From Minisyncoccia bacterium (GTDB lineage: Bacteria; Patescibacteriota; Minisyncoccia; Phycocordibacterales; UBA9973): a stretch of DNA of 64,000 nucleotides. Shown piece after piece: positions 2,255 through 62,400 of the stretch (position 1 is the first letter of the stretch; every line of letters begins with the position of its first letter). The position numbers and the translations under genes are program-made. The stretch is taken from assembly GCA_041737125.1 (NCBI GenBank), contig JBGSSJ010000003.1, forward strand, positions 15,718 through 79,717. The letters are read 5' to 3'. The notes under the pieces were generated by a model, which made no database searches, was not told where the DNA came from, and worked only from the letters and a program-made list of their open reading frames with translations.

Positions 2255-2292
2255 TGGCTGCTAATTCCCGCATATGCGGGAATTAGCAGCCA
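2255..2292. repeat. 38 bp perfect palindrome tggctgctaattcccgcatatgcgggaattagcagcca, centred on CATATG
   Basis: Read directly; its reverse complement is identical. It is more GC-rich than its surroundings. It lies in the divergent intergenic region between the lipoprotein gene and the GIY-YIG ORF. Confidence 0.8.
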
Positions 2293-2386
2293 TATAGAAA
2301 ATGTTTTTATTAATATTAGTGTCTTATATACCCACAAGTAGTGGGGTATCGTATTATTTATTAAATAAGCTATAATAATAAACATG

Positions 2387-2666
2387 ATCCCGTTAGAGAT
2401 CAGTTATGTTTTATTACACATATATATTAAGAAGCAAAAAAGACGGTAAGTGCTATACTGGTTATACACATGACCTACGGAAGCGCCTTGTGCAACACAA
2501 CAAAGGTTTATCCACTTATACGAAAGGTAGAGGCCCATTTGTTATTATTTATTACGAAGCATGTTTATCAGAGCAAAAAGCTCGGTCGAGAGAATTATAT
2601 TTAAAATCGGGAATGGGCAAGCGTTATCTAAAGAACAGATTAGGCGCTTCCTATCTCTAACGGGAT
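2387..2666. repeat. 14 bp perfect inverted repeats (atcccgttagagat at 2387-2400, atctctaacgggat at 2653-2666) that exactly bracket the GIY-YIG ORF
   Basis: Read directly. The right repeat contains the GIY-YIG stop codon and overlaps the ATG of the downstream pilB-like gene (2665). Confidence 0.8.
2406..2660 (+). CDS. GIY-YIG nuclease-domain protein (small standalone, UPF0213-like)
   Basis: 84 aa. Begins YYTYILRSKKDGKCYTGYTHDLRKRLVQHNKG, which fits the GIY-(10-11 aa)-YIG motif followed by the conserved Arg. Confidence 0.7.
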   Translation: MFYYTYILRSKKDGKCYTGYTHDLRKRLVQHNKGLSTYTKGRGPFVIIYYEACLSEQKARSRELYLKSGMGKRYLKNRLGASYL

Positions 2667-4373: not shown

Positions 4374-4478
4374 AAAAATAGTCTTGTGAAAGGGGCTCGA
4401 GAGCGCGACGGCGCAAACGATTGAACAAATTTTGAGCTTCAAAATTTGTGTGCCCTTTCACAAGACTATTTTTTTTGA
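4374..4478. terminator. Long bidirectional terminator-like hairpin: 17 bp outer stem (tagtcttgtgaaagggc / gccctttcacaagacta) flanked by an A-run and a T8-run, enclosing a ~55 nt insert with its own sub-hairpin
   Basis: Read directly. Lies downstream of pilB. The insert contains caaattttgagcttcaaaatttg, which is self-complementary. Confidence 0.55.
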
Positions 4479-4770
4479 CCTAAAAAGAAAAAAACATAAA
4501 TCTCTAAACAATCCTTTGATAACGTAAAGCTTCCAAAGTAACATAAGGTTACAGGATAGCCCCAGTAAATATTAAATATAACCAAGACGTCCTACGCGCA
4601 TACATAGAGCACGTGGCCGATTGCTTAGAGATTTATGTCCTCTTCGCGAAAATGCTATAATTGATTTGTAAAAACTCCTTCTAAATTTCTGAAGAGAGTA
4701 TAGCATAAGTCTGTTGTAATGTCAAGTAGAATACAGGTAGGTCCTTAAAGGCCCAAAAATAGAAAAATTT

Positions 4771-31044: not shown

Positions 31045-31420
31045 ATGTATGTTCCATAAAAACATTCTCAGATTTGCTCAAACAAAAATATTCACGAGCG
31101 AACCCTTTCGCAGACTGTCGAGGCGAGAAGAGCAAAAATTGAGCACAATTTTATGCGTGGTGAGCCCGTGAGTATTTTTGTGGTGAGCAGCAAAAAGAAA
31201 TAATAAAAACATTCTCAGATTCACCACGAATAATTTTCTGGTGAAAATTTTCTCTGCTCGGGTCGTCGCCCTGCGCAAGGGTTCGCTCACGAATACTTTT
31301 GCTCTGCTCTGTCTGGATAAAAAATAATACTTTTTTATTGAGCAGGTGTGGGCGCGCGCTCCGAGTATTCTCGGAGTAGGGATAAACGAAATAAAAAAGT
31401 ATTATTTTTTAGTAAGACAT
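31045..31420. repeat. Unusually long structured non-coding region: two direct copies of aaaaacattctcagatt (31052, 31207); imperfect ~35 nt inverted repeats (31090-31130 vs 31260-31300); an AT-rich 20 bp inverted repeat pair (aaaaaataatacttttttat / ataaaaaagtattatttttt, ~31318-31340 and ~31391-31412) enclosing a GC-rich hairpin (ctccgagtattctcggag)
   Basis: Read directly. No protein-like ORF: the tracked 70 aa ORF 31078..31290 is low-complexity. Candidate structured ncRNA (6S-like long imperfect duplex) or a MITE-like remnant. Confidence 0.4.
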
Positions 31421-60533: not shown

Positions 60534-62075
60534 TTACACTTTATGTTTCTTATGTAGCTTATCTACCTCTTCTTGTTCAAGTCTGTCTTTCTCTTCTTTT
60601 GCTTTCTCACCTAGGTTTCTGAGTTCTTCATCGGATAACTTGTTGAGCTCTAGGGCCTCACCCTTCAGATACTCTATTGTATTCTTCTTCGGATCTTCTA
60701 GTACAACTTCAAGTAATGCATGGAGAATCCACCCCATTCTTCTCGATGGTTTCATGTGTAACTCTTTTATTAATACTTCGCCATCGATTGCAAGCTGACT
60801 GACGGATAGCGGATCACGAAGCACTTCATCTATCATTGCGTGATACTTGCGGAGTCTGTATGGAGCCTCTGCTTTCTTCATGCCTACCCTGTCGCATTCG
60901 CGTATCTCCATGAGCTCCCATATATGCTCCTTCCCTACTTTTTGTACGATACGGCGCACAGCTGAAAGGCTAATCTGCTCTGTGTCAGAGAAGAACATAT
61001 GATTACGTACAAGGGATACTACTAGATCTATTGTTTTCCTTGGGTACTTTAACCTTTCCATTATTATCTTCACCATCCTTGCTCCTATAACTTCATGACC
61101 GTAGAAAGTATAAGCCTTTTTCGTGCCCGGCCTTCTACTGCGAGGCTTGCCTATGTCGTGGAATAGTGCGGCCAACCTTATCTCTGTGCTGTATCCTTTG
61201 TTTGTAGCATGGTCGAGTGCTCCTAGTAAATGCTCGAATACATCGTATATATGGGCACCACCTTGCTCGCAACCAATTCCCTCCTCTAACTCCGGAATTA
61301 TGTATTTGAGTAAATTAAATTTCTGTAGGAAGATTATCCCTTGAGTGCTATTCTTACTTTCAATTATTTTGGTGAATTCATCACGAATTCTCTCCATCGA
61401 GATGTTCTTGATAAGTTCAGAGTTTTCCACAATTGCAGTCATTGTGTCACTAGATATAGCAAACCCTAGTTGTGAGGAGAATCTAATGGCACGGAGCATG
61501 CGCAAAGCATCTTCATTGAACCTATCACTTGGTTCACCCACAGCCCTCACTATTTTGTCCTTTATGTCCTTTATTCCCTCATACAGGTCTATAATTTGTC
61601 CTTTATGAGGATTATAGGCTAAAGCATTAACTGTGAAGTCTCGTCTCTTAAGATCATCTTCTATTTTGTCGCTAAACTTTACTTGGTCCGGATGTCTGAA
61701 ATCACTATATTTAGCTTCAATTCTATAGGGCGTGACCTCAATTATCTCGTATTTTGTTACATGTGTAACACTCAAATCAGCGTTTTTAGCTGTTTCATGG
61801 GAAACATTAGGCATTTCAGCTTCTAGTTCTTCTGGAATCGGGATGCATACTCCCACTGTGCCAAAGTCATTTTCATATACAGTTTTCTCAAATAGAGGCA
61901 TTATTTCTTCTGGTTTGGCGTTAGTCGTTACATCCCAGTCTTTAGGATCTCTACCCATAATCAGGTCTCGGACACAGCCACCCACAAGAAAAACCTCAAA
62001 CCCTGCTTTCTCCAAGGTTTCTGTTACATGTGTAACACTTGATGGTATTTTTGAGTTTTCTATGTTTGGTTTCAT
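60534..62075 (-). CDS. cca: CCA-adding tRNA nucleotidyltransferase with a C-terminal HD domain
   Basis: Start chosen at MKPNIENSK (62075). Head-domain motif GGCVRDLIMGRDPKDWD...RRDFTVNA. HD motif LFHDIGKP. The tracked ORF extends to 62279 only because it reads through a duplicated non-coding repeat. Confidence 0.85.
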   Translation of the reverse strand: MKPNIENSKIPSSVTHVTETLEKAGFEVFLVGGCVRDLIMGRDPKDWDVTTNAKPEEIMPLFEKTVYENDFGTVGVCIPIPEELEAEMPNVSHETAKNADLSVTHVTKYEIIEVTPYRIEAKYSDFRHPDQVKFSDKIEDDLKRRDFTVNALAYNPHKGQIIDLYEGIKDIKDKIVRAVGEPSDRFNEDALRMLRAIRFSSQLGFAISSDTMTAIVENSELIKNISMERIRDEFTKIIESKNSTQGIIFLQKFNLLKYIIPELEEGIGCEQGGAHIYDVFEHLLGALDHATNKGYSTEIRLAALFHDIGKPRSRRPGTKKAYTFYGHEVIGARMVKIIMERLKYPRKTIDLVVSLVRNHMFFSDTEQISLSAVRRIVQKVGKEHIWELMEIRECDRVGMKKAEAPYRLRKYHAMIDEVLRDPLSVSQLAIDGEVLIKELHMKPSRRMGWILHALLEVVLEDPKKNTIEYLKGEALELNKLSDEELRNLGEKAKEEKDRLEQEEVDKLHKKHKV

Positions 62076-62081
62076 GAGAAA

Positions 62082-62400
62082 CGTTATTTTGTGGTCAGGC
62101 ATAGTTTTCTGCAGAAAACTTGCACGACCCTGGCTCGGCCCGTCGGCCTCCGCCTTGCACAAAATGCTCAGCATTTTGTGCACCCAGAGGGAATTTCGAT
62201 CATTACAGGATCTGTACACCTTTCGTATCGTACTTGCTTCGCTCCGTGCGATATACTCAAGGTTTTTCGAATCCCTCAAAAAACATGTCGTTTATTTTGT
62301 GGTCAGGCATAGTTTTCTGCAGAAAACTTGCACGACCCTGGCTCGGCCCGTCGGCCTCCGCCTTGCACAAAATGCTCAGCATTTTGTGCACCCAGAGGGA
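62082..62400. repeat. 113 bp direct repeat x2 (62082-62194 and 62289-62400, ~98% identical, 94 bp spacer). Copy 2 contains the last ~14 nt of tRNA-Arg plus ~95 nt of its downstream GC-rich, hairpin-containing sequence
   Basis: Read directly: cgtt(t)attttgtggtcaggcatagttttctgcagaaaacttgcacgaccctggctcggcccgtcggcctccgccttgcacaaaatgctcagcattttgtgcacccagaggga. Confidence 0.85.

Follow-up and report, generated by a model that had tools for sequence, protein, structure and literature searches.

Among the small repeated DNA elements of bacteria, the Correia elements of Neisseria are substrates of RNase III. Among the nucleases, Slx1 cuts branched DNA in the form of flaps, junctions and stem-loops, and the cellular genes for YhbQ and YazA are, so far as is known, of a single-copy, housekeeping type. 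Slx1, YhbQ and YazA are regarded as one family (PMC7017083). GIY-YIG genes are found among the horizontally transferred genes of Patescibacteria (PMC12455944), and GIY-YIG ORFs also occur in CPR rRNA genes, at several sites, within insertions other than group I or group II introns (Tsurumaki et al. 2024, PMC11270868). The element described here comes from the same phyla as those rRNA insertions, yet no inverted repeats, target duplication or start-codon location are reported for the latter. Full-text literature searches brought up neither the present family nor any GIY-YIG element with terminal repeats, nor any element that targets start codons.

The locus lies in a window of 64,000 nucleotides, the whole stretch of DNA that was analysed. 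Positions 2388-2665 are read here, with a probability of roughly three in four, as a 278-bp mobile element made up of 13-bp terminal repeats and one Slx1/YhbQ-type gene, selfish in nature, which traps promoters and start codons. The GC content of the window is low (38%), and the closest PilB loci are those of Paceibacteria/Nomurabacteria-type MAGs. Exact-protein look-ups of the GIY-YIG and PilB sequences of the window returned no record.

ATCCCGTTAGAGAT at positions 2387-2400 and its exact reverse complement, ATCTCTAACGGGAT, at 2653-2666 form a perfect 14-bp inverted repeat, which encloses an intact ORF of 84 aa (2406-2660). The TAA of this ORF (2658-2660) falls inside the right arm of the repeat, and the pilB ATG takes its AT from the final two bases of that arm (2665-2666). 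An earlier note, made from the sequence alone, had described precisely this arrangement, namely a GIY-YIG ORF enclosed by perfect 14-bp repeats, with the right repeat holding the stop codon and overlapping the pilB start; each of these points was confirmed, the nature of the ORF by its match to PF01541. The repeat by itself is suggestive, since about one in ten simulated windows has one: when the window was simulated 200 times with a first-order Markov model, the mean number of perfect inverted repeats of 14 bp or more, lying within 320 nt, was 0.12, and 20 simulations (~10%) contained any. Such figures might be taken to mean that an ordinary small gene has a chance inverted repeat around it, yet the same repeat is found at the same distance, with compensatory changes, in at least 60 homologues, which leaves this explanation with a virtually negligible probability. 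It is thus the comparison with other sequences that gives the 14-bp repeat its meaning. T-CCCG...CGGG-A (2388-2665, 278 bp) is probably the element proper, and the outermost bases of the repeat form part of a 4-bp direct duplication, ATGA, at 2384-2387 and 2665-2668. The features of the locus are collected in Table 1; the GCTATAAT box upstream of pilB probably now drives the element as well.

Table 1. Features of the element and of its host gene, with positions given in the window.
Feature	Positions	Strand	Remarks
GCTATAAT, -10-like box of the pilB promoter	2369..2376	+	7 nt upstream of left ATG
Left ATGA of the target duplication, original pilB start codon	2384..2387	+	single copy in empty sites
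21-codon ORF opened by the captured start codon	2384..2449	+	out of frame with the nuclease gene here
Left terminal inverted repeat TCCCGTTAGAGAT, 5' arm of stem S1	2388..2400	+	outer CCCGTTAGA near-invariant
84-aa GIY-YIG nuclease gene, UPF0213/YhbQ-Slx1 type	2406..2660	+	Pfam, PDB and fold matches
5' arm of stem S2, GGAAGCGCCT	2479..2488	+	within codons of the conserved LRKRL motif
3' arm of stem S2, AGGCGCTTCC	2642..2651	+	1 nt from the right repeat
Right terminal inverted repeat ATCTCTAACGGGA, 3' arm of stem S1	2653..2665	+	holds nuclease TAA 2658-2660
Right ATGA, working pilB start codon	2665..2668	+	tblastn of PilB relatives begins here at residue 1
Host gene pilB/gspE, T2SSE ATPase, intact, 566 aa	2665..4365	+	PF00437, E=1e-117

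An empty-site comparison, as suggested by the earlier note, covered 80 pilB orthologue loci from related Paceibacteria, with PilB identities of 51-88%. A direct scan of the 80 start regions found the element absent from 78 of them, and a GIY-YIG gene upstream of pilB occurs in none of the 80. The empty sites read TATAAT-N7-10-ATGAC, or, written out, ...GCTATAAT-N9-10-ATGACCATCCAA; in these relatives the TATAAT stands 9-10 nt ahead of the pilB ATG, and the start codon occurs once (...ATGAC/ATGGC...). The site in the window reads ...GCTATAAT-AATAAAC-ATGA/TCCCGTTAGAGAT...ATCTCTAACGGG/ATGACTATCCAA, and what remains after subtraction of the empty site is exactly the element and a second ATGA. At two loci, L012 and L016, the same pilB ATG bears differing insertions that have these ends but no ORF and measure about 143 and 116 bp, the duplicated bases being ATGAC and ATGTC; these are independent events on one pilB start codon. 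By this comparison, the unit in the window is an insertion relative to related genomes, which sits on the pilB ATG and duplicates ATGA. The compact selfish or excisable cassette which the earlier note had envisaged 5' of pilB is borne out by the empty loci and by copies at many other genes. Its description of a cassette abutting the pilB start holds as far as adjacency is concerned, but the element sits on the start codon itself and duplicates it. No second copy of the repeat or of the GIY-YIG ORF lies within the 64-kb window; homologous copies with the same repeats are present at many other genes.

The element belongs to a large, Paceibacteria-wide family located at the start codons of unrelated genes and flanked by a duplication of 4-6 bp, made up of ATG and 1-3 bases specific to the gene. 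One architecture, found at many unrelated genes, recurs with hardly an exception in 80 metagenome loci with homologues, and can be written as (-10 box)-ATGNN(N)-T/CCCGTTAGAGAT-N4-9-ATG...GIY-YIG...TCCTATCTCTAACGGG/ATGNN-long ORF, with ATCTCTAACGGG as the right end. The terminal repeats of the family are (T)CCCGTTAGAGAT and ATCTCTAACGGG(A), and the ends may also be given as CCCGTTAGAG. A catalogue over all loci (1.09 Mb) comprises 86 distinct elements, 64 of which bear the GIY-YIG gene and 22 of which are ORF-less; nearly all of the former measure 272-278 bp, and the latter 63-131 bp. An ATG or GTG opening an ORF of at least 40 codons adjoins 62 of the 86. The host genes are unrelated (CYTH, FtsH, PrgI, Fic, HAD phosphatase, RecJ, MurG, glycosyltransferase, Nramp and, in the window, PilB), and the insertion sites, in at least ten unrelated genes, have only (A)TGRA in common as a target. 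The motif GTTAGAG/CTCTAAC resembles the GTTRRRY core of integron attC sites, but an attC-like cassette was rejected as an identity for the element, which occurs singly at chromosomal start codons and has its arms at opposite ends of the ORF.

A perfect direct duplication of 4-6 bp flanks 38 of the 64 GIY-bearing elements, with a mode of 5 (ATGNN), and takes in bases specific to the gene concerned, as in ATGCAAT, ATGTTT, ATGAAAT and ATGTC. It is missing in the other 26, and the length of the duplication is variable (3-6 bp), which is atypical for an insertion sequence or MITE. In place of a duplicate of the start codon, some left flanks (ACTTGT, TTTAC) have a sequence that is wobble-complementary to it. 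Duplications also occur away from the start codon itself, namely ATAAA at locus L136, ATATG two bases upstream of an ATG at L081, and TTGA in a -35-like box at L115. Tandem copies with one ATGAA-T between them were found at two loci (L153, L139), and at another (L118) one element is nested within a second. The target duplications, together with the tandem and nested copies, point to insertion as DNA. On a 672-kb contig four elements lie in one 20-kb stretch, and one of them is missing from a syntenic contig. At the DNA level, elements from different genes share 90-92% identity, which is as high as for orthologous ones; among different-site pairs the best reach 92%, and no near-identical pair was seen. 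The right-end 19-mer is absent from IMG/VR viral contigs, so that there is no sign of a phage vector.

The exact border of the element is indicated by one subfamily (L129, L148) which ends in C...G and not in T...A, and in which the right start codon is GTG and the left copy ATG. Since this subfamily regenerates GTG, the outermost T/A (or C/G) is probably part of the repeat. On this comparison of sequences, the element probably supplies the first base of the regenerated start codon, the duplication then being TG plus 1-3 bases.

The ends of the element are conserved as paired structures. In a covariation alignment of 60 ORF-bearing elements, the outer nine bp of the terminal repeat (CCCGTTAGA) are nearly invariant, and the inner pairs of stem S1 change on both sides together (GAT/ATC, AAT/ATT, GGT/ACC, GAC/GTC). 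The internal stem S2 exhibits compensatory changes of the same kind (GC39/AT19, CG45/TA10/AT3, TA31/CG29). Across both stems 98.9% of cells are paired, with double-sided change in 10 of the 23 pairs and in 83 cells; none of 500 shuffles reaches the observed pairing, and slid registers drop to 31-49% paired. This covariation shows that the terminal ends and the internal stem have been kept complementary by selection. The 3' arm of S2 and the right repeat make up a continuous 3' strand of 24 nt, for which a quasi-continuous helix of 24 nt is predicted. The nucleotides of this strand are read in two frames by two subfamilies (...RLGASYL* versus ...RLKRFLSLTG*), which implies that it is the nucleic acid and not the peptide that is conserved there.

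Whether these stems act in RNA bears upon a further reading, in which the unit is a domesticated 5' regulatory module, the S1+S2 RNA structure controls the translation or stability of the downstream gene, and mobility is a matter of history; RNase III processing of the 24-nt helix may, in such a case, regenerate a short-leader mRNA. As the RNA fold suggested by the earlier note now shows, both stems are contained in the MFE structure of the window element (z = -3.4), and long hairpins are predicted for ORF-less copies (z = -4.2 to -5.7). The host AUG marks the end of the stem, and the orientation matches that of the host gene in all GIY-bearing elements and in 9 of 9 orientable ORF-less copies, despite the symmetric ends. 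The GIY-YIG non-intron insertions in CPR rRNA genes similarly need RNA-level tolerance or removal (PMC11270868). However, the sporadic presence of the unit, as seen in the 78 empty pilB loci, and the functional disparity of the host genes are at odds with a regulatory module, and the duplications, tandem copies and nested copies speak for insertion as DNA. Mismatches within the stems carry no RNA-specific signature, G-U and A-C being equally rare (10 versus 14 cells), so that G-U is not in excess; the counts do not separate folding as RNA from folding as DNA, the latter being at most slightly favoured. Rfam returned nothing on an ORF-less element and no intron match, and a neighbouring palindrome gave sub-threshold miRNA/snoRNA noise only. 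A regulatory module is thus quite improbable as the main explanation, and it may coexist with a mobile element, as the means by which the host tolerates it. A pilB-specific riboregulator was rejected, the stems belonging to a mobile element found at many genes. The long-range stem proposed in the earlier note as sequestering the pilB ribosome-binding region accordingly survives as a structure, which covaries and is joined by a second stem, but it is a property of the mobile element and not a regulator specific to pilB.

The single protein of the element matches the Pfam family GIY-YIG (PF01541) over residues 3-69, with 59.5 bits against a cut-off of 22.6 (E=4e-16). It has more than 1200 homologues, with 82-90% identity among the 120 matches listed, which are annotated from Nomurabacteria, Paceibacterota, Woesebacteria and Minisyncoccia, and some of which are mislabelled 'excinuclease ABC subunit C'. 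Among solved structures, the UPF0213 proteins BH0048 and EF2693 come nearest to it in sequence (1zg2, E=5.6e-10; 1ywl, 6e-5). The AF2 model of the 84-aa protein has a pLDDT of 91, and a Foldseek search with it ranks 1zg2 (BH0048) first, followed by the nuclease domains of Slx1 (7cq3, 6seh and 4xm5; TM 0.64-0.73, 26-30% identity), with the catalytic domain of I-TevI far behind. Sequence and modelled fold alike place the protein in the UPF0213/YhbQ-Slx1 branch of structure-specific nucleases. Twenty homologues show no variation at residues Y6, Y17, G19, R27, H31, E51, E63 and N77, and conservation at the Y, Y-x-G, R, H, E and RE positions extends to 57 diverged copies; by analogy with I-TevI, the invariant residues are those expected for catalysis. 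Among these 57 copies the median dN/dS is 0.13 and dS is near saturation, which indicates that the nuclease has long been kept functional. Purifying selection of such duration could also be compatible with a benefit to the host.

The fold and the domain content of the protein bear directly on the homing cassette named in the earlier note, read here as a classical free-standing GIY-YIG homing endonuclease gene which cuts a long, specific site of 14-40 bp in empty alleles and is copied in by recombination. Filled and empty alleles of the same gene do exist, and HMM searches give weak matches to homing endonucleases of group I introns and phages (TIGR01453 of NCBIfam, group I intron endonuclease, 3e-5 and below the cut-off; phrog_314, 6e-7; PADLOC HEase, 1e-3). 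The 84-aa protein is, however, a bare nuclease domain with no DNA-binding module, the Rfam search revealed no intron, the target genes share only the short motif given above, and neither short target duplications nor terminal inverted repeats are products of homing. Homing is thus a highly improbable origin for the element, and that part of the earlier note was given up.

A weightier alternative is a MITE-like shell, moved in trans by a transposase encoded elsewhere, in which the GIY-YIG gene is carried as cargo, such as a repair or defence nuclease of benefit to host or element. The same ends are found on ORF-less elements whose interiors are unrelated, GIY-YIG enzymes are not known transposases, and the strong purifying selection and saturated dS would suit a useful gene. 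Yet GIY-YIG is the sole protein found between these ends, and a recognised transposase (DDE, HUH, serine or tyrosine recombinase) is absent. No longer element with these ends was found in the 1.09 Mb, where pairing of end motifs was limited to 400 bp and unpaired matches were at noise level. At locus L098, moreover, a GIY-YIG paralogue of 50% identity lies between the arms of another repeat, CCCGTAGTAGA, and ATGGA-T is followed by one more left end of this type; that the divergent protein has a correspondingly different repeat fits co-evolution of protein and ends. The nuclease ORF is also physically interlocked with both stems and with the right end. A shell moved in trans is therefore considered rather unlikely, and a mobile element served by its own nuclease is the reading followed below.

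The position of the element relative to the promoter and start codon of its host gene suggests how it may be expressed. In the window, Shine-Dalgarno sequences are rare and a -10 box is often found 5-10 nt ahead of the ATG. Over 62 insertion sites, hexamers of the -10 type are most frequent at 18-19 nt ahead of the element end, which corresponds to 6-7 nt before the left ATG. A sigma-70 consensus scan in which a -35 box was required did not call the TATAAT before the element, where the -35 is absent. Because of these upstream -10 boxes, and because no obvious promoter was seen within the element, the left ATG, or a point close to it, is the probable start of transcription. The nuclease shares its reading frame with the captured ATG in 13 of 60 aligned elements, and likewise in 92-aa database forms (MNPVRD.../MDPVRD...), the in-frame forms being ATG-NA-T followed by CCCGTTAGAGAT. 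At the other end, the nuclease stop in the subfamily of the window lies 4 nt before the regenerated host ATG (UAACGGGAUG), and in the other subfamily the nuclease ORF overlaps the host ATG as AUGA in most copies. Such a stop-start geometry is classical for termination-reinitiation and suggests that translation of the two genes is coupled; it would also explain why ATGAA is the commonest target.

These observations may be combined into a scheme for the life of the element. A copy that lands just behind a -10 box would be transcribed from the host promoter, and the captured host ATG would open either the nuclease ORF itself, in the in-frame forms, or a short overlapping ORF. The host gene would then be translated by termination-reinitiation from the regenerated ATG, which would render the insertion nearly harmless. 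For movement, the strand of the element would fold into a branched structure in which S1 and S2 stack on their shared 24-nt 3' strand. The structure-specific nuclease may recognise this fold through the conserved CCCGTTAGA base of the stem and cut at its foot; the nuclease or host repair would open (A)TGRA targets with a short stagger, and repair of the gap would yield the duplication. The chemistry of transposition, and movement driven by the nuclease, are thus put together from the structure and distribution of the copies. Strand transfer is beyond a hydrolytic GIY-YIG enzyme acting alone, which depends on the host for ligation and repair; the cuts of characterised GIY-YIG enzymes have short 3' overhangs, from which a 4-6-bp duplication does not naturally follow. 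Against the nuclease model stand this hydrolytic chemistry, the variable length of the duplication, the 26 of 64 elements without a perfect one and the lack of near-identical copies. It is proposed tentatively, with odds somewhat short of even, that the family represents a new class of prokaryotic transposable element, in which a Slx1/YhbQ-type GIY-YIG nuclease recognises the folded, branched element, and in which the host promoter and start codon are captured and a regenerated start codon is handed back by translational coupling.

If this proposal is true, the family would be a type of transposon for which neither the enzyme nor the target, the start codon, has a precedent. It would exemplify the persistence of a parasite in streamlined genomes of about 0.6-1 Mb, obtaining transcription and translation for free while the host gene remains working, and would provide a first, testable function for the widespread Slx1/YhbQ/UPF0213 nucleases. 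Gene calling in Patescibacteria is affected by false N-terminal extensions (MDPVRD...) and by 'excinuclease ABC subunit C' mis-annotations. The elements also offer a natural system for studies of leaderless initiation and of termination-reinitiation, and a self-contained insertion module of 278 bp with a defined short target may be of practical interest.

Comparison with known systems places the family among several kinds of small mobile DNA and of nuclease. Insertion sequences and MITEs, such as the Correia elements, RUP and ERIC, are alike in having terminal inverted repeats, a short target duplication, many loci, ORF-less derivatives with the same ends, a location by gene starts and hairpin transcripts. 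They differ in that here the sole ORF is an 84-aa GIY-YIG protein, the whole unit amounts to ~278 bp, the target is the start codon itself, the orientation is constant and the length of the duplication varies. As a prokaryotic transposable element it would, to our knowledge, be the smallest that bears an ORF. The IS200/IS605 elements share the small size, the apparently essential folded DNA ends and insertion by a short, specific tetra- or pentanucleotide; yet they make no target duplication, their pairing is subterminal and they employ a Y1 HUH transposase with covalent intermediates, whereas in the present family one end pairs with the other and the target is duplicated. The Rickettsia palindromic elements are likewise small, palindromic, selfish DNA in a reduced genome, with the function of the gene preserved, but they lie in frame within coding sequence and encode nothing, whereas the present element regenerates a start codon and carries a nuclease.

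On the side of the enzyme, the homing endonucleases I-TevI and Seg similarly have a GIY-YIG domain in a selfish element with filled and empty alleles, yet the element described here is without the DNA-binding domain, the long target and the intron, and has terminal repeats, duplications and many target genes. The Slx1/YhbQ/YazA (UPF0213) proteins provide the sequence match, to UPF0213, and the fold match, to Slx1, and the cutting of branched DNA by Slx1 would suit a folded element; Slx1 differs in its C-terminal RING/PHD zinc finger and its Slx4 partner, both of which the element protein lacks, and in that here the gene is embedded in a mobile unit. The kind of system is thus a known one, mobile DNA with inverted repeats and target duplications, and what is new are the enzyme, the size, the target and the proposed translational hijack.

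The left flanks of the insertion sites of the GIY-YIG element were compared among loci from metagenomes and relatives (L-numbers, with the position in the locus after a colon). The most frequent left junction is ATGGA-T, and GGAT lies directly 5' of the left ATG copy, the original host start codon, at 8 of the 62 sites, far above chance (L005, L110, L158, L112, L089, L091, L082:2229 and L016; e.g. ATGGAT|ATGAAT-CCCG). This GGAT might be a footprint that an earlier element left behind, what remains of a right end (CGGGAT), or else an odd ribosome-binding motif. Across all gene starts in the window, most genes are devoid of a Shine-Dalgarno sequence and many exhibit a TAnnnT box at a distance of 5-10 nt upstream of the ATG. 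In this organism, mRNAs seem as a rule to be leaderless or to have a very short leader.

Some left flanks without duplication read A[CT][CT]TGT or TTTA[CT] (L086, L097, L100, L102, L104, L112, L012:609 and L145, L151, L157, L160). Judged by base complementarity, G-T wobbles included, they could pair with the right-hand AUGAA/GUGAA, and such pairing would lengthen the terminal stem, formed by the two terminal repeats of the element, across the host start codon.

The element is also reflected in the annotation of its homologues in the databases. They include 92-aa forms that begin with the residues MDPVRD (P0002, P0060, P0071; in P0115, MSPVRD), and these residues are translated from the captured start codon of the host together with the terminal repeat; P0046 is annotated as "excinuclease ABC subunit C", although it is a member of the same GIY-YIG family. 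These starts and this name are either artefacts of annotation or results of the element's presence.

Additional repeats occur in the window, both around pilB and at a distance from it.

Repeats and palindromes in the window other than the terminal repeats of the element
Feature	Position	Strand	Location
Perfect palindrome without loop, 38 nt	2255-2292		upstream of the pilB element
Perfect 22-bp stem, 58-nt loop	4373-4394 / 4453-4474		directly 3' of the pilB stop codon
Inverted repeat CATAAATCTCTAAAC ... GCTTAGAGATTTATG	4494-4507 / 4625-4638		
Long inverted repeat, arms ~22 nt, ~58 nt apart	31318-31339 / 31398-31419		intergenic
Direct repeat, ~108 nt per copy	62083-62190 and 62293-62400	minus	

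The 38-nt palindrome (TGGCTGCTAATTCCCGCAT followed directly by ATGCGGGAATTAGCAGCCA) occurs once in the window and in none of the compared loci. It may be a second insertion, unrelated to the GIY-YIG element, since it sits within ~140 nt that are missing upstream of pilB in the relatives. The 22-bp stem, possibly a terminator or a further hairpin element, lies in the 405-nt spacer between pilB and ruvB. The CATAAATCTCTAAAC repeat includes the core of the element's own repeat (TCTCTAA / TTAGAGA) in reversed order, and may be a decayed relative of the element or a coincidence. Further away, the ~108-nt direct repeat brackets the start region of the ORF at 60534-62279(-), and both of its copies hold internal palindromes (tgcacaaaatgctgagcattttgtgca; ttttctgcagaaaa).

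Related GIY-YIG genes may have other ends or targets. In L077 (38-350), the end of a 45% identical ORF directly abuts a tRNA-Lys gene on its 5' side, and a tRNA-5'-like sequence is repeated in the upstream flank of the ORF (GGGCAGGTAGCTCAG); this unit is possibly a related element with a tRNA gene start as its target. L098 (440-800) carries a second GIY-YIG gene, 50% identical and with a different terminal repeat (CCCGTAGTAGA...), after which another left end of the same type appears behind ATGGA-T. This second gene looks like the representative of a sister family that has ends of its own.
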